From an uncultured delta proteobacterium (GTDB taxonomy: Bacteria > Desulfobacterota > Binatia > UBA9968), in NCBI GenBank assembly GCA_963840855.1, contig CAWJBB010000069.1, positions 56,290 to 120,289 on the forward strand: a stretch of 64,000 nucleotides of DNA, read 5' to 3'. How positions within the stretch are numbered: position 1 is the first letter of the stretch; every line of letters begins with the position of its first letter. A program made the translations under genes and the position numbers. The notes below the pieces were generated by a model, which was given only the letters and a program-made list of their open reading frames with translations, searched no databases and had not been told where the DNA came from. Shown one piece after another: positions 1,561 to 15,110 of this stretch.

Positions 1561-1891
1561 GCCAGGACTTTCCTATCACTTGTTCGAGTTTGCGAATTTC
1601 TCTAGGTGAGCGGCGATCACGTTAGCCGCCAATTGATTCCCCGCAATATTCCAGTGTGTAGTCGCGCGCGTCTACGAGCAAACCCGTCTTGTTGGCCTCG
1701 CAAATATCCCAGCAGTTGCTTCCCGGGTTTAGGATTCTGTGATCAGTCATGATTTCAGTAACAATACTGAAGTCGCTGCCTGTTTTCCAGCAAGCGACGA
1801 TAGCCCGAATCGTATTATCTCCTCATTGAGAGCGGAGGCCAGCGGAGACGGGGCGTGAGCCGGCACCTATTCCGGAGGCACTCTTTAAAAT

Positions 1892-2857
1892 CTAAGATTT
1901 CGAGTCTTTTCGCTCTGATCTCGTCAGCCGTCGCCGCGTCTTTTGTGGGCACAAGAAGGAAATCGAATGAGCCCCGATTCTAACATCGATGATTTTGGAC
2001 TGCTTCTTTTTCTTGCGATCGTCATTTGACCACGGCTTATCATCAATGTGAACCGGAGACCCGTCCCATTCGATTTGTAGATGTCGGCCGCGTTGCACGG
2101 TAAGCTTCGCATCGACATTCCGTCCACGTATGCAGTGCGTGAGATATCGGCTCAGTTTCTTTTCTTCTCCGTGAACAAGCAGAACGACCTCGAGCAGACC
2201 ATCGTTGGTGTCCGCAGTCGGAGCGAGATCCAGGTTTGGACCGACATATCGTATATTCAATGCCTGCAGCAGAATGTAATCGCCCGACAGATCCTCATCA
2301 TCCAAAAGCACCGAAAGTTTCTTCGGAGTGTGTTTTTCTAGCCGTTCCTTTAGAATGGCGAGGACTCTCTCAATTTCGTCGTCGCGGCGAACATCAGCTG
2401 CCAGGAGGGGATGGTTGCGTTGCTCCAGCTTCAACATTGTCGAGGCAAACAGACCGAATCCAAAACCTTCAATGAAGTAATATGAACCCCATGGCCCATC
2501 CACCTCGCCTACGTCAAAGTTGACTCGGCGCGCAGAATCCCAGTCGGCAATGAGGGGGTCTAAAGCCCTTCCGGTCAACCCCAAGCTGTGACCGACATTA
2601 TTGGCGGTGCCCAGAGGGAGAATCGCAATCGGAGTCGGATTGCCGACCATTCGGCGGGCAACTTTTCCAACGGTGCCGTCTCCGCCGGCAACAGCGATAA
2701 TATCTGTGGATTTCTTCAGCGCCTTTTTCCAATCATTGTCTTTAGAAGAATAATATTTGACCTTATGGCCCGCGGCCTGGATCATATCGGTAATCCGATC
2801 ACCTGTAGGCTGTGAGTCGTCACCGGCGGATGGGTTATGAATCAATGTAACTTTAAT
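1892..2857 (-). CDS. Diacylglycerol kinase family (YegS/DgkB-like) lipid kinase
   Basis: HNPSAG, GGDGT and PLGTANN motifs. AAGGAG RBS lies 10 nt upstream of an ATT codon at 2857, the likely start position. Confidence 0.85.
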   Translation of the reverse strand: MKVTLIHNPSAGDDSQPTGDRITDMIQAAGHKVKYYSSKDNDWKKALKKSTDIIAVAGGDGTVGKVARRMVGNPTPIAILPLGTANNVGHSLGLTGRALDPLIADWDSARRVNFDVGEVDGPWGSYYFIEGFGFGLFASTMLKLEQRNHPLLAADVRRDDEIERVLAILKERLEKHTPKKLSVLLDDEDLSGDYILLQALNIRYVGPNLDLAPTADTNDGLLEVVLLVHGEEKKLSRYLTHCIRGRNVDAKLTVQRGRHLQIEWDGSPVHIDDKPWSNDDRKKKKQSKIIDVRIGAHSISFLCPQKTRRRLTRSERKDSKS

Positions 2858-2891
2858 TGGTTTGCTTCTCCTTCGTGTACAATTTACCGCT

Positions 2892-2961
2892 AGGATTGAA
2901 CTGAACGACGCAACGGACAAATCTCACAGGATTGAATCGTCGGAGAATTCAGTTCAATCCT
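2892..2961. repeat. 70-bp imperfect palindrome, copy 1
   Basis: AGGATTGAACTGAACGACGCAACGGACAAATCT-CACA-GGATTGAATCGTCGGAGAATTCAGTTCAATCCT, with a 14-bp perfect terminal IR. Confidence 0.95.
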
Positions 2962-2986
2962 GGCAGCGCCGCTTGGTTTTCTGCCA

Positions 2987-3976
2987 TCATTTGATCAGCC
3001 TATTCGCTCGGGCGAGCACCTCCGGCGGAATCGTCAAGCCTATCTGCTTTGCCGCTTTGAGATTGATGACGAAATCGAATTTCTTGGGCCGATCCACCGG
3101 TATGTCAGCGGGTTTTGTCCCCTTGAGAATCTTATCCACGATCTCAGCGGCGCGCCGGAGCATCTCTGAACGATCCTCTGAGTAAGTCATCAGTCCACCT
3201 GCCTCAACGTACCGAACGTTGGGATACACGCCTGGAAGCCGATTCTTTGCCGCTAGCTCTACGATCCGTTTTTGGTGAGAGCTGAGGAACCCGCCGCCGC
3301 CGCCCAACATAAGCGCCTGAGCACGCTTCTTTGTTGCAGCTTGAAATGCCCTTTCGATGTCGTCAGGCCCTTTCACCTCTAAGGATTGGATCCCTAACCG
3401 TAAATACCGAGCCACAGTCTCTGTCTCTTTCATCGCATAGTCCGCCTCTGGATTGGTCGGACTCCAGAGATATCCCACCTGCGAGAGTTTTGGAATTATT
3501 TCCTTGAGCAGTTCAAGCCGTTTTCCGTTTAGTTCGGTGTTAATAGAGGTCAGCCCCGTGATGTTTCCACCGGGGTGTGCGAGGCTCGCGATGATGCCAC
3601 GCCTTTCGGCATCCGCGCCGAATGCCATTACAACGGGGATCGTCTTGATCACTTTTTTAGCAACCTCCGCCGCTTCAGTCCCAGTGGTAACGATAACGTC
3701 GCAGTTGAGACGGACTAGCTCGGCGGCGAGGTCTGGCAACCGATCAACCTTCCCCTCCGAGAACCGGTACTCGATTGTGAAGTTCTGCTCCTCGACGTAA
3801 CCGATCTCGCGTAAACGATCACGAAATGGCTTCACGTAAATTGTTTCAGTAGAAGCATTGCTCGCTCCCAGAAAACATATCCGCGCCACTTTCTTCGGCT
3901 GCTGCGCCTCGGCTATGACTGCAACAGCAAGTAGGATCACTACGAACAGGATTGACAAGACACCAGCTTTTTTCAT
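2987..3976 (-). CDS. ABC transporter substrate-binding protein (ABC_sub_bind / putative Trp-Tyr-binding family)
   Basis: AEAQQ signal cleavage site, SLAHPGGNITG, KRLELLKE, and KPADIPV…INLKAAKQIGLTIP. Start placed at MKKAG. Confidence 0.92.
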   Translation of the reverse strand: MKKAGVLSILFVVILLAVAVIAEAQQPKKVARICFLGASNASTETIYVKPFRDRLREIGYVEEQNFTIEYRFSEGKVDRLPDLAAELVRLNCDVIVTTGTEAAEVAKKVIKTIPVVMAFGADAERRGIIASLAHPGGNITGLTSINTELNGKRLELLKEIIPKLSQVGYLWSPTNPEADYAMKETETVARYLRLGIQSLEVKGPDDIERAFQAATKKRAQALMLGGGGGFLSSHQKRIVELAAKNRLPGVYPNVRYVEAGGLMTYSEDRSEMLRRAAEIVDKILKGTKPADIPVDRPKKFDFVINLKAAKQIGLTIPPEVLARANRLIK

Positions 3977-4081
3977 TGCAGACACCATGTGCGCATTACG
4001 CGGAAGGTAGCAGAGAAAAGTGACATTTACGACAGAAGGCGAAAGGTATTCCGTCGAGTGGAAAAACCAGATTTTTAGCCT

Positions 4082-4151
4082 GAGATTGAACTGAACGACG
4101 CAACGGACAAATCTCACAGGATTTAGTAGACGGAGAATTCAGTTCAATCCT
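4082..4151. repeat. 70-bp imperfect palindrome, copy 2
   Basis: Near-identical to 2892-2961, same length and CACA centre. Confidence 0.95.
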
Positions 4152-4177
4152 GGCGTCGCTGTTTGTTTTTCCTGGCA

Positions 4178-5164
4178 TCACTTGATCACTTTATCCGCTC
4201 TATACAGTACGGACTGCGGGATGGTCAGGCCGATCTGCTTGGCAGCTTTAAGATTAATGATGAACTCGAATTTCGTCGGTTGCTCGACTGGGAGATCAGC
4301 GGGCTTGGCGCCTTTCAATATCTTGTCGACATACGTCGCGGCGCGGCGGAACAATTCGGGATAGTTCGTGCCGTAGGTCATGAGTCCGCCGGCGTCGACA
4401 TATTCCGGCCTGGCATAGGCCGCCGGCAGCCGATGCTTTGCCGCAAGGTCGACAACTTGTTGGCGCTGGAGATTGAGGATGGGATTCCCCAGCACCAGAA
4501 GCGCATGGGCGCGCCCCTTGGCGGCGGCTCGGACCACCGGCTCAATATCCTTGGGATCTTGGACGTCCAGATATCGAAGATAGATGTCGTAGGATCCGGC
4601 GGCGAGTACCGTCTCTCGTAAAACTTGTGCGTCGCCTGGGTTGGTCGAATTGCCGATGATAGCCACACGCGAAAGTTTGGGAACGATCTCTTTCAGGAGC
4701 TCCAGTTGTTTGCCGCTCATCTCCGGTGCCAGAGCCGCCAATCCAGTGATGTTCCCGCCAGGTTTCGCCAGACTGGCGATGAACCCGTTGCCGACGGGAT
4801 CGGTATCTTGCCCCATGACGATCGGTATCGTAGAAGTTGCTTCTTTGAGGACACGGGTTATCGTCGGCCCAGCGGAGACGATGACGTCGACCTTCAGACG
4901 CACGAGCTCGGCGGCAAGTTCATTGCGACGCTCGATTTTTCCTTCTGAAGAGCGCCACTCGATGATGATGTTCTTACCTTCAATGTACCCGATCTCGCGG
5001 AGACCTTGGCGGAAGCCTTCGATGCGAGCGGTCATAGCAGAAGCAGGCGCGTCGAGCTGAAATCCTATACGCGGGACCTTCGCCGACTGCTGCGCCTCGG
5101 CTATCAACACAACACCGAGCAGCGTCACTGCAACCAAGATTAACGACCAACGAGCTTTGATCAT
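4178..5164 (-). CDS. ABC transporter substrate-binding protein (ABC_sub_bind family)
   Basis: Paralog of 2987-3976; SLAKPGGNITG, KPADLPVEQPTKFEFIINLK. Confidence 0.93.
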   Translation of the reverse strand: MIKARWSLILVAVTLLGVVLIAEAQQSAKVPRIGFQLDAPASAMTARIEGFRQGLREIGYIEGKNIIIEWRSSEGKIERRNELAAELVRLKVDVIVSAGPTITRVLKEATSTIPIVMGQDTDPVGNGFIASLAKPGGNITGLAALAPEMSGKQLELLKEIVPKLSRVAIIGNSTNPGDAQVLRETVLAAGSYDIYLRYLDVQDPKDIEPVVRAAAKGRAHALLVLGNPILNLQRQQVVDLAAKHRLPAAYARPEYVDAGGLMTYGTNYPELFRRAATYVDKILKGAKPADLPVEQPTKFEFIINLKAAKQIGLTIPQSVLYRADKVIK

Positions 5165-5276
5165 TGCTCACCTCGTTCATGAGCAAACTTATCACGCTCG
5201 CGGTAATTGCGAAAACGATTAGTTACGGCATAAGAAAAACCCGATTTGTCGAGGGGAAAAAAGGCAATTTCGACGC

Positions 5277-5346
5277 AGGATTGAATTGTACGACGCAACG
5301 AACAAATCTCACAGGATTGTGTCGTCGGAGAAATTAGTTCAATCCT
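5277..5346. repeat. 70-bp imperfect palindrome, copy 3
   Basis: AGGATTGAATTGTACGACGCAACGAACAAATCT-CACA-GGATTGTGTCGTCGGAGAAATTAGTTCAATCCT. Confidence 0.93.
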
Positions 5347-5519
5347 CGCGGTTCCCGCGTCCTCGCGGCGCTCAAAGCCCACGATAATTATTCGTAGAGT
5401 TGTCTACTATTGGACAGTAATCCTTACCCATTGGCTTATGTTAAGGTTAGGAATTGAATAACGTGATTCGTTGGACGGCGGCCTACCAGATTCGGAAGGC
5501 CCAGCCTTTTTGGAGAAAC

Positions 5520-5780
5520 ATGATGGACAGAACATGGTCGGTAGAAATTGAAGGCAAGAAACACCTGATCGAAGTTGACTATGGCAGGAATGCCAGCCAG
5601 ACCGGCAAACTATTGGTCGACGGCAATGAATTGCAGACTTGGAAGAATGCTCAGCATTTGGACGTCCCTCCAGAGATTACTTTCCAGGTCGAAGGCAAAC
5701 CGGCCGTCTTACGCGCAAAGGGGTTTTTTAAACCCAGGATAGATTTCTTTTTTGGAGGGCAATTAATAGAACAAGCTTAA
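5520..5780 (+). CDS. Small beta-rich hypothetical protein, possibly FAIM-like fold
   Basis: GGAG RBS before ATG at 5520/5523; W.V.I.G..H.IE..G…VDG.E pattern. Confidence 0.6.
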   Translation: MMDRTWSVEIEGKKHLIEVDYGRNASQTGKLLVDGNELQTWKNAQHLDVPPEITFQVEGKPAVLRAKGFFKPRIDFFFGGQLIEQA

Positions 5781-5961
5781 TTCAAAATTAGGCATACCGG
5801 AGGGCGAGTTTTAAAGCCCCTCGACTGCCTTCTTACCGAGTCTATTCAATATACAGATTCTTAACTGTTCGGTACAAAGGATTTAGCAGGGATCAGCAGC
5901 AAGAGGCTAGGGCCTGCAAACGTGCACGCGCGCAGTCTTTAGCTGCGAGAAAGGGGATTAT

Positions 5962-6552
5962 ATGGAGAGAATTCTTTTTCTTCTTTTCATTCTCTATTCG
6001 CTTTTTGTTGCTTCAATTATCTCAGCTGCTGAGAGTCAAACATGGATGATACGACCCGGCGACAATCTTGATATCATTGCGACGACTCTGGAAATTCCCA
6101 AAGAAGAAATTAAAAAACATAATCCCGGGGTTTTGGAGAACAGTCTCCAAATCGGCCAGAAGCTGAAACTGCCGCTTCGCTCATATGTAGAGGTTAAGAC
6201 GCTGGAAGACGAACTGGGCAAAAAAGTTGAGCGGATTGGAAAGCTCGAAAGAAAAAGCAGTGATTCTGAGCAAAAAATCGCTAGCGCAGAATCGCAGTTG
6301 CGCTGGCATCCCGTTTGGCTTTGGGGATTCTGGATTTCTTTCGGCATTATTGCATTTATAGTTTCCGGCGCATATTGGATTTTTCGTCAAACGCACCCGC
6401 AGGTTTTTGAGCAACCGCATGACCGGTCCATCAGAGACTTAAGAGAAAGCAAAATACGAGCGCGGTCATCATTTCCGCACGACGAAGAAGGTGCAAGCAG
6501 CCGCGGAGGCAAATGGCAGCCGTCACTGAAGCCGCTTCCCGCACACCGTTAG
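5962..6552 (+). CDS. LysM peptidoglycan-binding membrane protein
   Basis: Signal peptide, LysM motif IRPGDNLDIIA…IKKHNP…LQIGQKLKLP, coiled coil, one TM helix. Confidence 0.8.
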   Translation: MERILFLLFILYSLFVASIISAAESQTWMIRPGDNLDIIATTLEIPKEEIKKHNPGVLENSLQIGQKLKLPLRSYVEVKTLEDELGKKVERIGKLERKSSDSEQKIASAESQLRWHPVWLWGFWISFGIIAFIVSGAYWIFRQTHPQVFEQPHDRSIRDLRESKIRARSSFPHDEEGASSRGGKWQPSLKPLPAHR

Positions 6553-6661
6553 CGGAAACAGATGAAGCTCAGGTGCCAAGCCGGCAGTTGGCGCTCCTCT
6601 AACGAACGAGCCCATCGCAACACAGCGGCCTTCATGACGCAGACTGTCAGAAGCAGCGTTA

Positions 6662-6694
6662 GGAATGGATTGATGGAGAATTCAGTTCAATTAG
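6662..6694. repeat. Isolated right arm (33 bp) of the 70-bp palindrome
   Basis: GGAATGGATTGATGGAGAATTCAGTTCAATTAG aligns without gaps to the right arm. Confidence 0.8.
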
Positions 6695-6718
6695 GGGTCT
6701 GTTCTTGGGGAAAACATA

Positions 6719-7705
6719 TTAGCTTGCCGTGGCGGCTACAATAACACTTGCGCGATTTCCTAATGGCCTACGGTCGACTTGGCGCCAACCACTCGTTTGA
6801 AGCCAGTTACGAACTTCTTCCTCGCTATAAATATCGCCTTCTCCGGTTCGTAGTAGGAAGGCGCCAGCCATCAGCGCAGCGAACATCGGTTCTGTGTGAG
6901 TGGAATTAGTCCAAAAGTCGACGAGTAACAGCGTTGCATCATCTCGCACGTTTTGGCGGAGACGCCGAAGGAGTACAAGATTATGCTCCGGTAAAAGTAA
7001 ATGCATCACGTTGGCGATAATGATAACGTCGTTATCCTGCGGAATTGGATCGGTAAAGAAATCGCCTTCCACTACGCTGATCCGATTCGCAATGGTTTGA
7101 GGTATCCGTCGCCGAGCAACAGCGGCAACTTGTGGGCGTTCAAACAAAATTGCTTCCAAATGGCTTGCCTGCCTTAACACCGCGCTGAGGAAGGAGCCCG
7201 TCCCTCCTCCGAGATCTAATACGCGATGATGAGAAGTAAAATCATACGTAGCAGCAAGCGCATTCGCAGCCTCCACTGTGAATGATTCTACCCCTTCTGA
7301 ATAAATTCGTTGCTCTTCTTCTGTGAGTTTGAGATCCTTGAACACGGGCTTGCCCGTCCGGACTGCTTCTTCTAGTTTCATCCACATGGAATAATTCAGC
7401 CGGTCCAAGTACCGCAAGAGTGGCCGCAAATCTTCGTTGCCACGGCCGCTCAAGAAACTGAGCGCCGCCGCGCTATTGTGGTATCGCCCGCCGTGATTTT
7501 CCACAAAGCCTAACGCAACCATGGCATCAGTCAGTATTCGCATCGTTCGACCTGGCATCCCGATGCGTTGCGTTAGTTCATCCAAGGTAGCCGGACTATC
7601 AGCCAGCTGCTCAAATATCCCTACCTCATTAGCGACGAATAGGAGTTTGGACGCCATGAATCCGCAGCCAACCTGAAATATCGTGTCGGGTTTTACGTCG
7701 TTCAT
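6719..7705 (-). CDS. SAM-dependent O-methyltransferase (Methyltransf_2 with dimerisation domain)
   Basis: LDLGGGTG motif I, GDFF motif, ANVMH, N-terminal winged-helix dimerisation region. Confidence 0.9.
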   Translation of the reverse strand: MNDVKPDTIFQVGCGFMASKLLFVANEVGIFEQLADSPATLDELTQRIGMPGRTMRILTDAMVALGFVENHGGRYHNSAAALSFLSGRGNEDLRPLLRYLDRLNYSMWMKLEEAVRTGKPVFKDLKLTEEEQRIYSEGVESFTVEAANALAATYDFTSHHRVLDLGGGTGSFLSAVLRQASHLEAILFERPQVAAVARRRIPQTIANRISVVEGDFFTDPIPQDNDVIIIANVMHLLLPEHNLVLLRRLRQNVRDDATLLLVDFWTNSTHTEPMFAALMAGAFLLRTGEGDIYSEEEVRNWLQTSGWRQVDRRPLGNRASVIVAATAS

Positions 7706-7819
7706 GGATCGCTCCTTCCACGAATTCTAAACAGCTTCAGCTAGGAGTATATTCAACGATCGATATGGCCCGGAGCCTAATTCGATTTCGGGCAACCGTC
7801 AAGATTTATCATTTACGCT

Positions 7820-7852
7820 AGGATTGAACTGAACGACGCGTCAAACCAATCC
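7820..7852. repeat. Isolated left arm (33 bp) of the 70-bp palindrome
   Basis: AGGATTGAACTGAACGACGCGTCAAACCAATCC aligns without gaps to the left arm. Confidence 0.85.
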
Positions 7853-8052
7853 CAAACAACGTAATGTATTGGCGGCCAAGGTGCCGGAATCACATGAAAA
7901 TCCCAGCCTTAGGAGGTAGAGACTAGCGTCACTTTGGAAGCGAGACCGTGAGCACCAAAAATGGTCTATCTATTCGCGCCGTAATAAGGTCTTTTTCCTT
8001 GCGCGATGAACTACCGGAATTAGGTGCACAGGTGTTGGAAATGATCGGCAGC

Positions 8053-9102
8053 CTAGTTTGCCGAGCGTGGCTCATCAAGAAATAACTGTACTTCGCGAAA
8101 AAGATGGATGCGATTCTTCTCCAGGAAAACTACGTGAGTGCCCTCCCCGATTTGAACAAGACGTTTATAGTGGGTGTTGCTGAGTTTGCCGAAGACCGCC
8201 TGCGCCCCTGTGACCGGGGTAACGTCATCCCACTCTGCGAGCACAATTAAGGTAGGTGCCTTAATTTCGGATGGCTCCCATAGAGGCTTCCCGGCAAACC
8301 AGTACTCCTGAGTATCTTGGACAGTGCCGTTTGGAGTGCGCACAACCGGCGGTGTCTGCTTGGCGCCGACTGGGTCGGTGGCAAGTGTGGCCGCAGACCA
8401 CGCTTCGAACCAAGCTGCCGGCATCAAGTCTTTTTTCTTTTCTTCCGGCGCGCCAGTTTGAAGACGGCTCCTCGCTTGCTCCATCGTCCATGCTTGATAT
8501 GCGCCAAGCCTTGCGGGGCTACCGCTCGCCGGCGCCTTGCGTATCCAGCCCGGTGCATAGAGCACCAGACGATTGACTTTGTCGCTGTTTTGCGTGGCGT
8601 ATCGGCCCATGATCGCGGTACCCCAAGACCAGCCCATTAAATTGAGTTTGGTCACGCCTCGACGGACCAGGATATGATCAACAGCTGCCCCTACGTCCCT
8701 AACTGCAACATCGGTTCTGACGATGGGTGGATTGTCAGCGGCCGGCTTTTCCATCTCTAGGGGGCGCGTGGAACGACCGTAGCCCCGCAAATCAACCAGA
8801 TAAACATCGTAGCCGCGGCGTGCGATGTAATCCATCCACGAGAAACCATCCAAAGGCAAATCGAATGTACTGCTCGCTGCCTGTGTGGTACCGTGCACAT
8901 AGAGCAGCGTCTTCTCCCCGCTGAATTGGGCCATGCCTTCGGGGCGCTTATTCCTGACATACAGTTGAATGCCAGGGTCATGCGATTGAATCATATAGCT
9001 CTCTGTAACGAGCTTGAGTTCTGCTTGAGAGGTGATTCCGGCGCAGCCCATCAACACCAAGAACGAGAGGATGCTGACCCGATTCCATTCTGAATAGATC
9101 AT
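8053..9102 (-). CDS. Alpha/beta hydrolase, probable lipoprotein
   Basis: VHG, DLRGYGRS, GWSWG nucleophile elbow, EWD and GTH; lipobox-like LMGC. Confidence 0.88.
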   Translation of the reverse strand: MIYSEWNRVSILSFLVLMGCAGITSQAELKLVTESYMIQSHDPGIQLYVRNKRPEGMAQFSGEKTLLYVHGTTQAASSTFDLPLDGFSWMDYIARRGYDVYLVDLRGYGRSTRPLEMEKPAADNPPIVRTDVAVRDVGAAVDHILVRRGVTKLNLMGWSWGTAIMGRYATQNSDKVNRLVLYAPGWIRKAPASGSPARLGAYQAWTMEQARSRLQTGAPEEKKKDLMPAAWFEAWSAATLATDPVGAKQTPPVVRTPNGTVQDTQEYWFAGKPLWEPSEIKAPTLIVLAEWDDVTPVTGAQAVFGKLSNTHYKRLVQIGEGTHVVFLEKNRIHLFREVQLFLDEPRSAN

Positions 9103-9135
9103 ATGCTCCTCCTATAGCTCACCATCCATACTGCG

Positions 9136-9208
9136 GCCCAACCGCACATGTTGACCGGCCGCGGCGAGCGAATGCGAGCCAGAGGACCGGTCGAGCGTGG
9201 AGTTGGGC
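9136..9208 (-). mobile_element. Integron attC site
   Basis: Minus strand: GCCCAAC-TCCAC-GCTCGACCGG…CCGGTCAAC-ATGTGCG-GTTGGGC, giving R'' RYYYAAC, R' GTTRRRY and a paired L box with an extra base. Lies 30 bp after the stop at 9239. Confidence 0.82.
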
Positions 9209-9238
9209 GATACGGTGCGCCTGGCTGATGCGTGCTCC

Positions 9239-10390
9239 CTATTCCGATTCGGCACACGACCACTCAAAGAGATTGTCGTACACCAGTCCCCAAGGCGGCC
9301 GCAGAAAGCCGAGCGCACGAACATCTTCGTACCAGTAGCCGAACGGTGAGGATCGCGAGAACGTCCCTCCACCGATCACCCGACAAATCCGCCCCGTGGC
9401 AGACTCCGCCAATTCTGCGATAGCCGTTTTCGCCTGCGCCGCCCGGCGCCGCCCTTCGTTCCCCTCCTCGACGGCGCGGAGCATGCCGTCGTACGCTTGC
9501 TCAATCAACCAGCCTTCCATCTCGGCTCTCGACCATTCGACCCGCTCGTAGGCGCGCAAAGTATCGCGCCGCCTGACCATGTGCTGGCGCGCCGACGTGA
9601 CTGCGGTCTCGACGACTCCAACGATGACCGAAGCGAAAGCACATTGGATGAATCCGCCGGTGGCTTCTATCCTTTTCAGAAGGTTCCCCGGGTGGGCACT
9701 ACGCTGGCCAGGGAAGTTCGCGAACGCCATCGCGTGACTCTGAGTGGCTACCATTCCATGACCATCCCAGGGTGCTGTTAGAGTCACCCCCGTTGTGCCG
9801 TCCCAGGGCACGCCCCGCATATCGAGGAAGAACAAGTCGGGGGTTGTCTCTCCCTCTGGGAGAGCCGTCGTGATCATATAGGAGGTTATCCCGGAACCGC
9901 TCCCGAACTGCTTCTGGCCGGTGATCAGATAACGGCCGTCGCTGCCCGCAGGGCGCGCAGTCGCCTTCGTCTTCGCCATGTCGCCACCACTACCAGGCTC
10001 TGATGTGATGGTTCCCCACCAGGCGCCTTCTCTCACCGTTTGGAAAATCTCAGAGCGTTGCGCGACCCATGCCTCCTGAGATGGCGGAGGCACTTCCGGT
10101 GAGGTCAGCCATACAGCGAGGACCGACGGGTGCATCGCACAAACAAGCGCAACGGAAGGATCCCCGTGCGCCAGAATTCGCAGCGTTTCGCAAACGGGAC
10201 GTGTCGAACGGCGCAGGTCCTGCCAGACACCGCCCTCCTCGACCGGGACGCCGGTGAGGAGAAACCCGGCATCCCGCAGCGACGCGAAGTCAGCAGTGAC
10301 CAATGCGCGCCGTTGCTGGCGCTCAGTGCGCTCGGCGGCAAAGCGGGACGATATGTCCCCCAGATTCTTGAGGACGGTATGGATGTCCAT
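9239..10390 (-). CDS. Acyl-CoA dehydrogenase family protein (possibly DszC/SfnB-like flavin monooxygenase)
   Basis: TSEPGSGGD, ITGQKQFGSG, WDGHGM.AT.SH, GGGTF…YEDVR. Start moved to the ATG after an AGGAGG RBS. Confidence 0.85.
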   Translation of the reverse strand: MDIHTVLKNLGDISSRFAAERTERQQRRALVTADFASLRDAGFLLTGVPVEEGGVWQDLRRSTRPVCETLRILAHGDPSVALVCAMHPSVLAVWLTSPEVPPPSQEAWVAQRSEIFQTVREGAWWGTITSEPGSGGDMAKTKATARPAGSDGRYLITGQKQFGSGSGITSYMITTALPEGETTPDLFFLDMRGVPWDGTTGVTLTAPWDGHGMVATQSHAMAFANFPGQRSAHPGNLLKRIEATGGFIQCAFASVIVGVVETAVTSARQHMVRRRDTLRAYERVEWSRAEMEGWLIEQAYDGMLRAVEEGNEGRRRAAQAKTAIAELAESATGRICRVIGGGTFSRSSPFGYWYEDVRALGFLRPPWGLVYDNLFEWSCAESE

Positions 10391-10426
10391 CGCTTCCCTC
10401 CTTGCCAATAACTCGTCGGTCAAGTC

Positions 10427-10484
10427 GCCTAACGTACCGCTCAGCCGGCGCTTTTAGTGATCGGTCTGAAGCGAAAAGTTAGGC
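10427..10484 (-). mobile_element. Integron attC site (58 bp)
   Basis: Minus strand: GCCTAAC-TTTTC-GCTTCAGACCG…CGGCTGAGC-GGTAC-GTTAGGC, with perfect R boxes and two extrahelical bases. Lies 24 bp after the stop at 10509. Confidence 0.88.
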
Positions 10485-10508
10485 AATTCAAAGTCGAGCA
10501 ATAACCCT

Positions 10509-11552
10509 TCACGTTCGTTGTCTGATGTAGCGCAATACACCAAGGTCACCAGCCCGTGAAGAAGCGCGGAACATATCCGCCGCCTCTTTAGCGAACATAA
10601 CATCAACGTCAGCCTTCTCCCGCGTCAAGCCCTGCTCGTAAATATAACGTGCTAATGTTTCCAGCGCCGAGCGATTAGCCTCAACTCCATAGGCGAAAGG
10701 GTCTTTCCCGAAGAAGCGGAAGTTTTCCTCGAGATGCCAGTGAAGCCAAGGCAGGGATGTTTGGTATACGCTCGGATCACCAAGATTTTGATAACAATGC
10801 CTCTTGGCGTCTTCAAACGCCTTCATGAGACTTGCGGCGATCCACTGGTTGTGATCGTAGATGTCTCGCTTGATGGCGATCGTATGCATAATTGGAAAGA
10901 TTCCAGTTTTCTTGTAATAGGCCATTTCCACATCTCGATAATTCGGGAAAAGACGGTACACATTGGGAGAGCCGTTCAAAAAAGAGGATGGCGCCAGGGA
11001 GGTAATCATTGCATCCAGCTCGCCGGCTTCAAGCATTCCATTGATTGTTTTACCAGGCGGGATTTCTTGAAGATGGATTCTGGGAGGAAGGTTTAGTTCT
11101 ACTCGTTCAACCGGATCTGGAGCTTCAATCCCGCCTCGGTACCAGGATACTTTCGTCAGATCAACACCATACTCATCCTGCAAGATTCCCCGTGCCCAAA
11201 CTGCAGCGGTCTGTGAATACTCTGGTCCGCCGACCTTTTTTCCTTCGAGGTCTTTAGGCTCCCGGATTCCTGAGCGCGCATTGATGTAGATGTCCGCATG
11301 CCGGAAAACTTTGGAGGGGAAAACAGGGATAGCAATGTACGGTTTCGGAATGCGTTCGCGTGTGGTGACGTAACCTGAAGTTGAAATCTCAGTTACGTCA
11401 AATTCCGAGTGATGGAGCACCCGCCAGAATGTTTCCCAAGGCTTCAGTTGAACGTAATTGAGCTCGATCCCTTCAGGTTGAACTGTGCCATCGATCAACG
11501 CAGCAGTGCGGTCGTAATAACGGAGCGCCATGTTGAGGCGTAGTTTAGACAT
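10509..11552 (-). CDS. 4,5-dihydroxyphthalate decarboxylase-like protein (periplasmic-binding fold)
   Basis: YDRTAALIDG.V.PEGI, AIPVFPS..FRH, EYSQTAAVWARGIL, TGIFPIMH motifs. Confidence 0.85.
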   Translation of the reverse strand: MSKLRLNMALRYYDRTAALIDGTVQPEGIELNYVQLKPWETFWRVLHHSEFDVTEISTSGYVTTRERIPKPYIAIPVFPSKVFRHADIYINARSGIREPKDLEGKKVGGPEYSQTAAVWARGILQDEYGVDLTKVSWYRGGIEAPDPVERVELNLPPRIHLQEIPPGKTINGMLEAGELDAMITSLAPSSFLNGSPNVYRLFPNYRDVEMAYYKKTGIFPIMHTIAIKRDIYDHNQWIAASLMKAFEDAKRHCYQNLGDPSVYQTSLPWLHWHLEENFRFFGKDPFAYGVEANRSALETLARYIYEQGLTREKADVDVMFAKEAADMFRASSRAGDLGVLRYIRQRT

Positions 11553-11623
11553 ACACGCCTCCTACTGTTTTCAGGGTAACTCGAGGAAATGTCCGGCGAG
11601 GCATTTCCTTAAATGAATATTTC

Positions 11624-11677
11624 GCCTAACTATTAGGTGAGCCGCCATAGGCAGCGACAAAGGCCGGTCGGCTCATC
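11624..11677 (-). mobile_element. Degenerate attC (R' and L boxes kept, R'' lost)
   Basis: Minus strand: GATGAGCCGACC…GGCGGCTCACC-TAATA-GTTAGGC. Confidence 0.55.
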
Positions 11678-11837
11678 TCCGGCGACGGCCTCGACAATGA
11701 AATCCAAATCGGCTGCAATATCCACCAGCTACCCCAATTTGTCAACGTTTCGTTTCCCGACAAAAGCCGCCAGGGCGGCGGGTTATCTCCCTAACGAACG
11801 GCCGCTTATCGCGGCCAGACCATCGCAAAGTTCCCGC

Positions 11838-11907
11838 AGGATTGAACTGAACGACGCAACGGACAAATCTCACAGGATTGAGTCGATGGAGAATTCAGTT
11901 CAATCCT
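11838..11907. repeat. 70-bp imperfect palindrome, copy 4
   Basis: Near-identical to copy 1. Confidence 0.95.
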
Positions 11908-11931
11908 GGCATCGCAGCTTGGTTTTCTGCA

Positions 11932-12912
11932 TCACTTGAGCACTTTATCCGCCCGCGCCAGCACGTTCGGCGGAATCGTGAGACCGATTTGCTTCGCCGT
12001 CTTGAGATTGATCACCAACTCGAACTTCATCGGCTGCTCCACGGGCAGGTCGGCGGGCTTCGTTCCTTTTAGGATCTTGTCGACATATCGAGCGCCGTCT
12101 CGGCCCTCGGTACCGTAACCGGGTCCGTAGGACATCAGGCAACCATTGTCCACATAATCTCCCCGAGCGCATATCACCGGCAACCGATTGTGGATCGCAA
12201 GGTCCGCGATCAGTTTTTGGTTAGAATTGGCCAACGGGTTCAGCGTCACGGCGAGAGCGGCGCTACGCGCCTTAATTGCCTCTTTGAACGCATCCGGGTA
12301 TTTGTCGGCACTGTTTACCTCCATAGAATAAAGTTGCAGACCCAGTTCCCGTGCCGGCAGTAGGCTTTCTTTCCATTGTGGTGCAGAGCCTGGAGCCTGG
12401 GGATCCCACAGGACCGCAACTCGGGAAAGCTTTGGAACGGTTTCCTTAAGCAGCTCCAGTCGTTTGCCAGTCAAAATCGCCGCAATGTTGGTGATTCCCG
12501 TGCTGTTTCCTCCAGGTCGCGCCAAGCTTTCGACCAGCCCTGCCACAACAGGATCAGTCACACCCATAAAAACGATGGGAATCGTCTTAGTAGCGTTCTT
12601 GGCAGCTAGAGCAGCATTGGTTGTGACCGCCACGAGTACGTCAATCTTTAGATGCACCAGCTCGGAGGCAAGGTCGGGAAGCCGATCGAACTTGCTCCGC
12701 ATATCGGGAATCAATGGCGATGTTCTGTCCCTCAATATAGCCGAGATCACGCAGACCTTGCCGAATGCCTCCAGACGGGGCGCGTCAGCGGAAGCGGAGA
12801 CAGCCGCCAAATAACCTACTCGCGGGACTTTCTTGGGCTGCTGCGCCGTGGCGGGAAAGCTAAACGCAAAGAGCATGGCGCAAAGAGCAAGGACGGTGAT
12901 TTTTCTCTTCAT
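11932..12912 (-). CDS. ABC transporter substrate-binding protein (ABC_sub_bind family) with a short internal compensated frameshift
   Basis: Family motifs intact. About 22 residues near 12697-12763 read correctly (QGLRDLGYIEGQNIAIDSRYAE) only in another frame. Confidence 0.88.
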   Translation of the reverse strand: MKRKITVLALCAMLFAFSFPATAQQPKKVPRVGYLAAVSASADAPRLEAFGKVCVISAILRDRTSPLIPDMRSKFDRLPDLASELVHLKIDVLVAVTTNAALAAKNATKTIPIVFMGVTDPVVAGLVESLARPGGNSTGITNIAAILTGKRLELLKETVPKLSRVAVLWDPQAPGSAPQWKESLLPARELGLQLYSMEVNSADKYPDAFKEAIKARSAALAVTLNPLANSNQKLIADLAIHNRLPVICARGDYVDNGCLMSYGPGYGTEGRDGARYVDKILKGTKPADLPVEQPMKFELVINLKTAKQIGLTIPPNVLARADKVLK

Positions 12913-13079
12913 ATTTTTCTTTGCCTCTCGTCACTCGTCACATGACACTCGTCCCCCTCACCTTATTGCGCACCTCGTTTCGTGCGTTACTTATCACGCG
13001 GATAGCGATAAAGGAAAGTGTGATTTGCGGGCGGAAGCGGACAGGTATTAGTCTGAGTAGGAAAGGCCGGATTTCTCCT

Positions 13080-13108
13080 AAGATTGAACTGACGCTTCTG
13101 TGGAATCC
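13080..13108. repeat. Degenerate left arm of the 70-bp palindrome (4-bp deletion)
   Basis: AAGATTGAACT----GACGCTTCTGTGGAATCC against the left-arm consensus. Confidence 0.6.
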
Positions 13109-13155: not shown

Positions 13156-15110
13156 TTATTTCGGACGCTGGATGCGCAGCGCCCTGATGCGGGAGTTGAG
13201 CGTCGAAGGATTCATGCCGAGCAGCGCGGCGGCGCCGTCTTTGCCGGCCACGCGCCACGCTGTGGATTCCAGGGCACGCAGGATATTCTCGCGCTCTAAC
13301 TGTTGCAGGTCGCGAATTCGAAGAATGCGGTTTGAAGCCTCCGGCGTCGTCTCTTCTGCTGGCCGCCTTTCAGGAATTGTCTGACCGCCGGCATCCGGTA
13401 GAGCGCGGTCGAGATTGAGACGGCCGTCCCGAGAAGTAATGACCGCGCGCTCGATGACGTTTTGCAACTCGCGCACGTTGCCCGGCCATGAATAAGCCAT
13501 GAGCCGTCGCTTGTATTCGTCGGATAACGGTTCGATCTTCCGTCCCAACCGTTGGGCGAACTTGGCGGCGAAAGCGGAGGCGAGCAGAATGACATCATCG
13601 CTCCGCTTCCTCAAGGGCGGCACTTCGATGGGAAAAACGTTCAACCGATAATACAGGTCTTCTCTGAACGCTCCGTCTCTTACGGCTTGGCCGAGATCTC
13701 GATTCGTCGCGGCCATCACGCGAACGTCCACTTTATTCGTATGTGAACTGCCGACGGGCGCGATTTCGCCCTCCTGCAAGACGCGCAGTAGTTTAGCTTG
13801 TAAATCAAGGGACAATTCGGCAATCTCGTCGAGAAAAATCGTCCCATGATCCGCCAGCGCGAAGCGTCCCTCACGTTTTTGAGTCGCTCCTGTAAAAGCG
13901 CCCTTTTCATGTCCGAAAAATTCGCTCTCCATAAGCGCAGCCGGGATCGCCGCACAGTTGATCGTGATGAGCGGCTTGTCGCGCCGGCGGCTGGCCCCAT
14001 GGATCGCCCGAGCGATCAGCTCTTTTCCCGTGCCGGTCTCGCCGAGAATCAGAACCGTCGCGTCAGTGACCGCGACTTGCTCGACGTCTTCCAAGACACG
14101 CTTCAGCGCATCGCTCTGTCCGAGAATTTCGTCAAACCCGCGGAGGCTTTTGATCTCCTCCCGCAGATACGCCGCTTCCGCCGCCAGCGAATGAATTTTG
14201 CGGTCGGCTTCGAGTCTATCATTGATGTTTCTCAGGATAACGGAGTAGAAGCTCCGCCGCTCAATCTCAAAATGCGACAAGGTCGCCTCGGCTGGAAACT
14301 CCTTCCCGCCTACGGGCAAGGCTTGAAGCCCGCCTGGAATCCATAAGGACCGGCGTCCTGGGGTGCCGGCGCCAAGTTCGTGAATTAGGGTCGTGAGTTT
14401 CCTCCGACTTTCCTCAGAGAGAAGCGTGCTGAAACTTTCACCCATCACCTGTTGGGCCTCGCAATGAAAGGCTTGCTCCGCGGCGGGATTCATCCGGGTC
14501 ACCTTCAGGCTCTCATCGAATTCGATGACGGCATCCATGGCGCTGTCGAACAGCCCGCGTAGTTTTTCTTCGCGCTCCCGAACTTGTTTCTCGGCCCGCA
14601 GTCTTTGCATTTCGGCGGTCGCGCGAGCGGCAAAAATATTGAAAAGCGCAAGCACCCGCGGCTCTTCTGGCATGGGCCGTCGATCGATCACCGCCAAGTG
14701 CCCTAAAATTCTGCCGTCAACGTCCTTTAAAGGCATTCCCATGTAGCTGACGGCGCCGACGTCTTTAATGTCCGGATCATCGGGGTACAGTTCGAGCAAA
14801 TTGTCAGGGAAATGGACAAAGATTGGCCGTGTCGATGACTTGCTCGCACGGTGTTCCGGCGATATCGATCTCGTAATTTTGGATCCATTGCCCGTCCATC
14901 CAAAAGGCAAGCGCCCGAAGCCGGCGGACTTTCTTGGATATACTCCGTGACCCAAGCGCCATGGGTATTCAGCGCTCTGGCCAGATTTTCAACGAGGGCT
15001 GCAAAAAAGCGCTCCCCCGTCTCCTTCGCCGTTCCTTCGAGGATGCTTCGCAGCGCAACTCCTTCATCGAGTCCGCCAAGGGGAAGCGTTATCGGGTGCG
15101 TGTCGGGCAT
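13156..15110 (-). CDS. Sigma-54-dependent activator (GAF-PAS-AAA+-HTH, FhlA-like), frameshifted near the N-terminus
   Basis: GETGTGKE, GAFTGA, FLDEI, WPGNVREL and C-terminal HTH. The N-terminus lies in ORF 14727-15110. Confidence 0.9.

Follow-up and report, generated by a model that had tools for sequence, protein, structure and literature searches.

What kind of element divides a run of bacterial genes into segments of nearly equal length, and does it also move them? This question is raised by a 64,000-nt window in the genome of an uncultured delta proteobacterium (Binatia; GenBank assembly GCA_963840855.1, here G000). The window comprises positions 56290-120289 of contig CAWJBB010000069.1 (C69), in an assembly of 7.10 Mb on 93 contigs with 94% completeness and 8% contamination. 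It contains copies of a 70-bp palindrome that the original prediction, made from the sequence, took to be the junction site of a size-constrained, non-integron gene-capture system with a trans-acting enzyme. We find that this palindrome is built from two conserved 19-nt boxes and that the same two boxes bracket a gene for an Xer-like tyrosine recombinase in related genomes. Our preferred reading, to which we assign a probability of roughly 0.45, is that this recombinase has its cognate sites in the boxes, within cassette-like arrays; these would form a gene-shuffling system that is probably not a classical integron.

The four full palindromes and the lone arms described in that prediction are present where it had placed them. 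The first full copy (2892-2961) reads on the plus strand as a left arm (the Box B side), a CACA centre and a right arm (the Box A side), and lies 25 nt 3' of the binding-protein gene on its right, a member of the ABC_sub_bind family (PF04392). The second (4082-4151) lies 26 nt 3' of gene 4178-5164 and the fourth (11838-11907) 24 nt 3' of gene 11932-12912, both of the same family. The third (5277-5346) is the most diverged of the four and has as its right neighbour a 1.3-kb segment with two plus-strand genes. Over 93 nt, the other full palindromes are 77-95% identical to the first. A solitary right arm (6661-6694), in which the similarity ends at the palindrome centre, is found 24 nt 3' of an O-methyltransferase gene, and a solitary left arm (7816-7854) is located upstream of the same gene. 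The stop-to-arm gap, predicted to be 24-26 bp in four modules including that of the methyltransferase, measures 24 nt in this module and 25, 26 and 24 nt in those of the three ABC_sub_bind genes. Two weaker arms, predicted at 13080-13108 and 1732-1768, are real, though decayed. The left one (13072-13108) consists of a Box B that carries a small deletion and leads into the beginning of the usual binding-protein leader; it scores below the threshold of the arm hidden Markov model. The right one (1732-1768, part of 1732-1850 on the minus strand) is preceded by a decayed binding-protein C-terminal tail and spacer, and lies downstream of a kinase gene whose stop codon at 1892 is 124 nt away. The kinase gene therefore occupies a former binding-protein chassis.

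The arm-to-arm distances given for the window modules and, by Pfam, the gene identities were also correct. The motif is far above chance: its 13-mer core occurs 12 times in the window with at most two mismatches, against 1.55 expected, and none of 100 shuffles reached 12. The first palindrome folds with z = -6.6 on the plus strand and z = -5.0 on the minus strand, the remaining copies more weakly. A match to a known Rfam motif had been named as a possible objection; the whole 64-kb window has 0 matches to Rfam at gathering score.

An alignment of 51 distinct full palindromes from this genome and its relatives defines the two 19-nt boxes, in gene orientation, as Box A (GGATTGAACTGAATTCTCC) and Box B (GCGTCGTTCAGTTCAATCC). 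These are approximately 90-99% conserved and hold inverted copies of a 13-14-nt core, and the centre of approximately 32 nt between them is variable. Stem positions are nearly invariant, and double changes are no commoner than independence predicts (at one stem pair: 27 AT, 9 AA, 6 TT and 3 TA), so that the 51 palindromes show no stem covariation beyond chance. As judged from this alignment, the constraint on the element acts on sequence rather than on structure, as for protein-binding sites. By eye, an 11-6-11 arrangement in which CG and AATC/GATT are mirrored may be made out in the centre, and this would resemble an Xer core site with the crossover at CACA; the strongest conservation lies outside it, in the boxes.

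The search for a recombinase flanked by the arms, suggested with the original prediction, produced a candidate trans-acting enzyme, which strengthens the proposal of a cassette system bounded by recombination sites. In the related genome G002, two 307-aa open reading frames (ORFs; one at 79031-79951) beside element junctions contain Phage_integrase and SAM_1 domains and align end to end with E. coli XerD (E-value: 4e-39); the conserved arginine, H-x-x-R, histidine and tyrosine motifs are in register. None of the curated NCBIfam cut-offs is reached (199 of 330 bits for XerD, 198-202 of 335 for XerC and 60-65 of 265 for integron integrase). Box A lies upstream of each of the two genes and Box B just past the stop codon. 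This bracketing was examined in 34 metagenome loci with relatives of the recombinase, with at least 70% identity taken to define an orthologue. Box A was found 66-73 nt before the start of the match in 13 of 17 testable orthologue loci, and Box B 9-33 nt past its end in 19 of 23, compared to 3.4% and 2.1%, respectively, of random control windows. Homologues of 49-57% identity had Box A in 0 of 4 cases and Box B in 0 of 6. Recombinase loci from the related genomes carry Box B in five of six cases and Box A in four of six. The order right arm, recombinase, left arm recurs within binding-protein arrays, and the recombinase is the sole gene consistently found inside the palindrome; other genes lie between palindromes and have the opposite box order. 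The recombinase clade was found in G000, G002, G003, G017 and G033, and the single copy in G000 (C93 38565-37651) is associated with Box A and the same leader. Homologues of approximately 50% identity (loci L100, L101 and L106) have a different conserved palindrome, GGGTGGTAGAAT ... ATTCTACCACCC, approximately 57-100 nt after the gene, which hints that other branches of the recombinase family have their own cognate repeats.

An explanation consistent with this arrangement, in which the recombinase gene stands where the 32-nt centre would otherwise be (Box A - leader - recombinase - Box B), is that a soil-bacterial family shares a recombinase-associated repeat system, with the 70-bp palindrome as its short form. 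The boxes would be the cognate sites of the enzyme, and recombination between sites would excise, insert or swap the intervening segments, such that genes would behave as cassettes. Most cassettes would be ABC_sub_bind genes; several other cargoes occupy former binding-protein chassis. The anatomy and distribution of the element, the bracketing of the recombinase gene and the breakpoints at the sites are observed, whereas action of the enzyme on the sites, and the place of cutting, are inferred.

Junctions between paralogous segments bear on whether the site is a recombination junction, as had been claimed. A near-identical TENA cassette occurs in three contexts, two of them in one metagenome-assembled genome (MAG). 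At its 3' end are a remnant binding-protein tail, the spacer and a right arm, and in the pair from one MAG the identity spans the interval between two Box A copies, beginning at the upstream core and ending slightly beyond the downstream one. Similarly, C69 64111-65663 is 100% identical to C85 104930-103378 over 1553 bp. This identity begins at the outer edge of Box B (in the left arm at window positions 7816-7854), beyond which a methyltransferase gene is found in one locus and a binding-protein gene in the other. Duplicated segments that start or end at the centre-proximal end of an arm were found between C10 and C27, within C50, between C46 and C50, and within C35. For binding-protein gene 11932-12912, a paralogue with 92% identity is present on C7; it is without the last codons, the spacer and the palindrome, and the pair differs only in the 3' flank. 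Identity breakpoints between paralogous segments therefore fall at the boxes or at the palindrome centre. The claim is supported in outline, in that the site marks boundaries between exchangeable segments, as the TENA and C69/C85 breakpoints indicate; recombination itself would be the explanation for these boundaries. Simple co-duplication does not account for the junction pattern, and homologous recombination at the repeats could. The spacer is kept in 0 of 40 element-less binding-protein genes, and among these no empty site was found that would define ends or target-site duplications.

A profile built from the four window palindromes gave 83 nhmmer hits in the genome, and separate profiles for right and left arms located 132 arms (71 right, 61 left) on 15 of the 93 contigs. 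The orientation of 131 of the 132 arms agrees with the rest of their contig. The zones within 3 kb of an arm on either side make up 4.0% of the genome, such that the repeat is clustered rather than dispersed. In gene orientation, the order is stop codon, approximately 25 nt, right arm, left arm, a leader of approximately 110-140 nt and the next gene. Successive arms form 35 adjacent right-left pairs (full palindromes), 44 left...right, 19 right...right, 10 left...left and 9 right...left transitions. A bracket-type nesting of modules was considered and found to be inconsistent in either orientation.

The size constraint proposed for the modules was not borne out. Left...right gaps range from 248 to 12042 bp, and their cluster at 1092-1122 bp (mode of approximately 1.1 kb) stems from binding-protein paralogues of 325-335 aa: the 1.19-kb period is the length of one ABC_sub_bind gene plus its leader. 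This mode of 1.10-1.12 kb is what would be expected if the array had arisen by plain tandem duplication of a binding-protein gene unit, with a junction that is palindromic by chance and has no site-specific function. In keeping with such an origin, 17 of the 30 gaps below 1400 bp hold an ABC_sub_bind gene, and neighbouring units have a leader in common. The remaining 13 short modules contain other genes (248, 601, 604, 704, 812, 844, 887, 1067, 1111, 1157, 1184, 1185 and 1345 bp), as the original prediction had anticipated from the cargo of the window, and further families are found in other MAGs. The other cargo of this genome includes an NMT1-type binding protein, a 298-aa methyltransferase, SnoaL/DUF4440, an AurF-like protein, a metallo-beta-lactamase fold, a response regulator, PAP2, hybrid histidine kinases, a Rieske protein and BenE, and large genes of 971 aa and 1979 aa also lie between sites. 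The hybrid histidine kinases with GAF domains are inside arrays at C50 100337-102286 and C27 162297-164168.

Three further observations argue against tandem duplication. First, identity reaches 85-95% in the palindrome but only 69-70% in the coding sequence next to it. Second, the element-bearing genes are not one clade: when 55 binding-protein paralogues were placed on a tree, the 25 that have Box A, Box B or both were intermingled with the rest. The element requires 14 parsimony changes on this tree, whereas 1000 shuffles gave 18.4 on average and 12 at the lowest. Third, the same boxes bracket the recombinase gene in many contigs, and the element spans genera. Duplication of the binding-protein gene alone is thus insufficient, as had been argued, and this explanation is largely refuted and very improbable.

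Among related genomes, BLAST identified the element in 10 of 40 (9 of 24 from the same family, one of five from a second family and none of 11 from a third), with 76-93% identity and in several genera. A scan of public MAGs for exact arms, using one genome per species, found nine loci, in records titled uncultured delta proteobacterium and Candidatus Binatia as well as in two Acidobacteria-type records and one Bacteroidetes record. The arrays in public MAGs carry TENA/THI-4, a small methyltransferase, SnoaL/DUF4440, small ORFs of unknown function and binding proteins. No collinear counterpart of window positions 5347-11837 was found in four same-genus genomes, which contain only short pieces of it; this region is therefore highly variable. 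Twenty-four public sequencing runs were matched in the form of Logan contigs, the best of which contained 0.41 of the words, and four of these runs were compared with the window. A single 5358-nt contig of one run (X3) spans 6511-11869 with 38 differences.

Several points weigh against the proposal that the boxes are sites of the Xer-like recombinase. No recombination products were seen in the four runs, where contigs break at repeats and joints are short-sided or explainable by the repeats; for circular junctions and deleted modules, these contigs are evidence neither for nor against such molecules. The only assembled recombinase copy in this genome, on C93, carries frameshifts, and there is no Box B within 250 nt of it; the arrays may thus be static at present, or an unassembled copy may serve them. 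At the level of whole genomes the link is weak: the recombinase is found in three of the 10 element-bearing relatives and in one of the 30 others, a comparison among fragmented MAGs and non-independent kin. The element-rich genomes G018 and G005, both very fragmented, have no recombinase match at E <= 1e-45. The inverted cores are 42 nt apart, a distance that matches no known core site of a tyrosine recombinase, and the arrays are all co-oriented with no sign of inversion. The recombinase unit could also be an insertion element that targets palindromes rather than their mobilizer, and homologous recombination between repeats would leave breakpoints at repeat edges too.

These points lend weight to a serious rival, in which the palindrome is a structural or regulatory repeat comparable to repetitive extragenic palindromes (REP) or bacterial interspersed mosaic elements (BIME). 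It would serve one set of binding-protein genes as a protein-binding element or at the mRNA 3' end, spread mainly by gene duplication and be reshuffled by homologous recombination between repeats and conserved gene tails, and the recombinase would be just a neighbour or an inserter. Consistent with this, most right arms follow the conserved last codons of a binding-protein gene and a conserved 25-nt spacer, and most left arms are followed by one of a few conserved leaders of approximately 140 nt. The TENA and kinase modules still contain part of a binding-protein tail, arms are combined in mosaic fashion or stand alone (many seemingly solitary left arms have a diverged right arm in front that was missed by the profile), the sequence is conserved across genera, and the four public runs gave no recombination product. 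In addition, palindrome-less binding-protein paralogues carry other short repeats in their 3' flanks (C6, C32, C34, C72 and C40), namely GCGTGAG-type and AAAATCYAAAATC-type runs; different ABC_sub_bind subsets thus carry different intergenic repeats.

A REP-like repeat does not readily account for the scatter of element-bearing genes on the paralogue tree, for the restriction of the repeat to approximately 4% of the genome or for a stem without covariation. Scans for sigma-70 promoters and terminators gave chance levels (10 compared to 8.0 and 10 compared to 12.9, respectively). The recombinase lies at fixed distances between the boxes in independent contigs. Because it has Box A upstream and Box B downstream, the reverse of other genes, the boxes are unlikely to be a directional promoter or terminator. 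With these features in view, we consider a REP-like origin possible, though unlikely, and prefer to regard the boxes as sites of the recombinase.

A third explanation is that these are integron cassette arrays (CALIN), in which the palindrome is a lineage-specific attC site recombined by an integrase encoded elsewhere in the genome. Such an integrase exists: an integron integrase (TIGR02249) is encoded at C1 45987-46880 (442 bits, compared to a cut-off of 265), with a fragment on C21. An attC site is an imperfect palindrome of 57-141 nt with RYYYAAC ... GTTRRRY ends. In the palindrome described here, ATTGAAC to GTTCAAT spans 64 nt and each box matches this consensus at six of seven positions. 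The arrays are co-oriented with the element 3' of the genes, and the cargo in other MAGs is small and diverse. Furthermore, in 11 of 71 right arms (by eye), unrelated sequence ending in G is followed by TTARCC, then by five bases and then by the core, with a constant distance of 11 nt. Relatives contribute 12 rows of such G|TTARCC junctions, which in G002 lie 5-8 kb from an integron integrase, and 13 curated sequences upstream of TTARCC junctions fold into imperfect palindromes with ..AAC at the beginning and GTTA.. at the end, much like attC sites. TTARCC is mirrored as GGCTAA after many left arms, however, and the motif may be just the outer part of a longer palindrome.

Other observations point away from integrons. 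The contigs with the integrase and its fragment (C1 and C21) have no arms, and no palindrome or repeat array was found beside the integrase genes in G000 or in the nine relatives' loci examined. Integron integrase matches at E <= 1e-40 are found in 13 of 40 relatives (a tally that includes G009), and co-occurrence is weak: five of the 10 element-bearing relatives have one compared to eight of the 30 without the element, the latter count resting partly on G009. A crude and non-specific scan for AAC...GTT palindromes returned 1386 sites, with noise clusters only and no enrichment in arrays (21.3 compared to 19.4 per 100 kb), and a scanner of this kind is evidence neither for nor against attC sites. 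Ten curated attC-like hairpins aligned too loosely for a covariance model to be warranted. Conservation of sequence rather than structure, the frequency of half sites and the presence of genes of 971 and 1979 aa between sites are likewise atypical. We therefore judge an integron origin to be distinctly improbable.

Near the integron integrase of G000 (L001, C1:40000-59999; features 518-694, 2602-5848 and 5952-7013) are three consecutive tyrosine recombinase ORFs, which the integrase gene adjoins, and a block of GTTCAAGG-type heptamer repeats in inverted arrays; similar TTGAAC repeats are found near the integrase of G011 (L064 5042-5884). A TATACTGACCAG..ATATTGG-type motif is located just 3' of the integron-integrase genes of relatives (L053, L063, L064 and L066), and also adjoins two left arms (C50, approximately 66250-66340, and C65, approximately 13800).

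Comparison with characterized systems places the arrays between several of them. Reports on dif modules, the non-integron gene modules of Acinetobacter plasmids, describe units bounded by pdif sites on which XerC/XerD act (PMC13141974, PMC6449649, PMC7399989). Like these, the modules described here are approximately 1 kb or longer, stand side by side in arrays with unrelated cargo, are bounded by short sites that may be of the Xer type and would depend on an Xer-family tyrosine recombinase, here a candidate one. By contrast, dif modules use the host XerC/XerD and 28-bp sites of alternating orientation and are plasmid-borne, whereas the present sites are co-oriented, chromosomal 70-bp palindromes with two 19-nt boxes and a dedicated Xer-like gene inside the site. 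REPIN-RAYT systems are reported to combine an inverted doublet of short repeats that forms a hairpin, singlet remnants, a repeat-flanked enzyme gene and long persistence in a lineage (PMC3116915, PMC3337134), and the present element shares each of these features with them. In contrast to RAYT, the flanked gene here encodes an Xer-like tyrosine recombinase rather than an IS200/IS605-type Y1 (HUH) transposase, and the repeats are clustered in 4% of the genome and tied to gene modules. An association with RAYT genes was rejected as all 10 matches to Y1_Tnp (PF01797) are at least 36 kb from any arm or on arm-less contigs.

Integrons and CALIN, with attC sites and IntI, are described as co-oriented single-gene arrays of hypervariable content (PMC4889954, PMC4792948), as are the present arrays. 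The likeness may extend to a gene followed by an imperfect palindrome of approximately 60-70 nt with AAC...GTT boxes, and IntI is itself an Xer-derived recombinase. The arrays described here differ in having no array-linked integrase, in the conservation of site sequence rather than structure, in common half sites, in the long leader of their own that many cassettes possess and in a bracketed recombinase that scores 60-65 bits against the integron integrase cut-off of 265. A more distant parallel is provided by shufflons, in which the Rci recombinase inverts segments between inverted 19-bp sfx repeats within the 3' end of one gene. There too, a short repeat is present in many copies in a single region, and a dedicated tyrosine recombinase gene lies inside that region or next to it, but the present arrays give no evidence of inversion and have whole genes between sites. 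Inverted boxes also recall the terminal inverted repeats of miniature inverted-repeat transposable elements and insertion sequences, which have an autonomous partner with a transposase; the partner gene here encodes a tyrosine recombinase and not a DDE transposase. No description of such a palindrome/recombinase system was found in the literature searched.

If the recombinase acts on the sites, a soil lineage that is widespread, though uncultured, would possess a cassette system to which the integron paradigm does not apply, and its enzyme and short sites would be defined well enough for direct tests in E. coli. Such a system would also offer a mechanism for the large, fast-changing solute-binding protein families of these genomes and a natural comparison for the origin of integron integrases from Xer recombinases. 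In its fullest form, this reading describes an integron-independent chromosomal cassette platform in Binatia-like soil bacteria, where a dedicated Xer-like enzyme housed in its own site would move single-gene modules at 70-bp palindromes and drive the turnover of ABC_sub_bind and accessory genes. Such a second, independently evolved cassette system of Xer relatives we propose tentatively, and hold to be doubtful. Should the enzyme prove not to act there, what remains is a new and well-delimited repeat family with an unusual recombinase association.

The genes of the window array are, with the exception of one segment, on the minus strand. Gene 1892-2920 encodes a diacylglycerol/lipid kinase family protein (DAGK_cat and YegS_C by Pfam), and its ORF start is over-extended into the palindrome. 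ABC_sub_bind genes, also assigned by Pfam, are found at 2987-4117 (ORF start over-extended, domain from residue 95), 4178-5164 and 11932-12912. The plus-strand segment (5347-6660) contains ORFs at 5454-5780 (no family) and 5962-6552 (LysM), and its positions 5368-5806 are 91% identical to a same-genus genome, where no palindrome precedes them. The O-methyltransferase gene (6719-7705, Methyltransf_2 and Dimerisation) lies between a left and a right arm. A three-gene segment (7855-11837) includes, by Pfam, an alpha/beta hydrolase (8053-9102) and an acyl-CoA dehydrogenase-like gene (9239-10423), as well as a weak periplasmic-binding-like gene (10509-11552). The leader of this segment (11623-11834, approximately 200 nt) contains direct repeats of the GGAGATAGGCCGC type, two in number, as well as a hairpin with a T-run, and its TTGACA-17-GATATT is a good match to a promoter. 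Four of four same-genus genomes have this leader at 69-79% identity, and the same leader type is found after Box B of the recombinase in G002 (L051 7990-8100). At the upstream end of the array is a sigma-54-dependent activator gene (13156-14955, GAF-PAS-AAA-HTH by Pfam) of 599 aa. ORFs of 599 aa are also located at the upstream end of an array on C35 (43518-45317 and 26175-27974), and equal length suggests that these too may encode sigma-54 activators.

Other mobile elements and gene decay are evident in and around the arrays. A 1314-bp repeat (C85 105125-106438), presumably an insertion sequence, is 99-100% identical in at least seven places in the genome; on C85 it truncates a binding-protein gene approximately 190 bp from a left arm. 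On C35 (L002 12583-14504), a gene pair encoding Y2_Tnp (IS91-type) and Phage_integrase proteins abuts a palindrome with a shortened left arm. Many ABC_sub_bind genes and several recombinase copies are split by frameshifts in the arrays and metagenome loci, which may reflect either pseudogene decay or assembly error in repeat regions.

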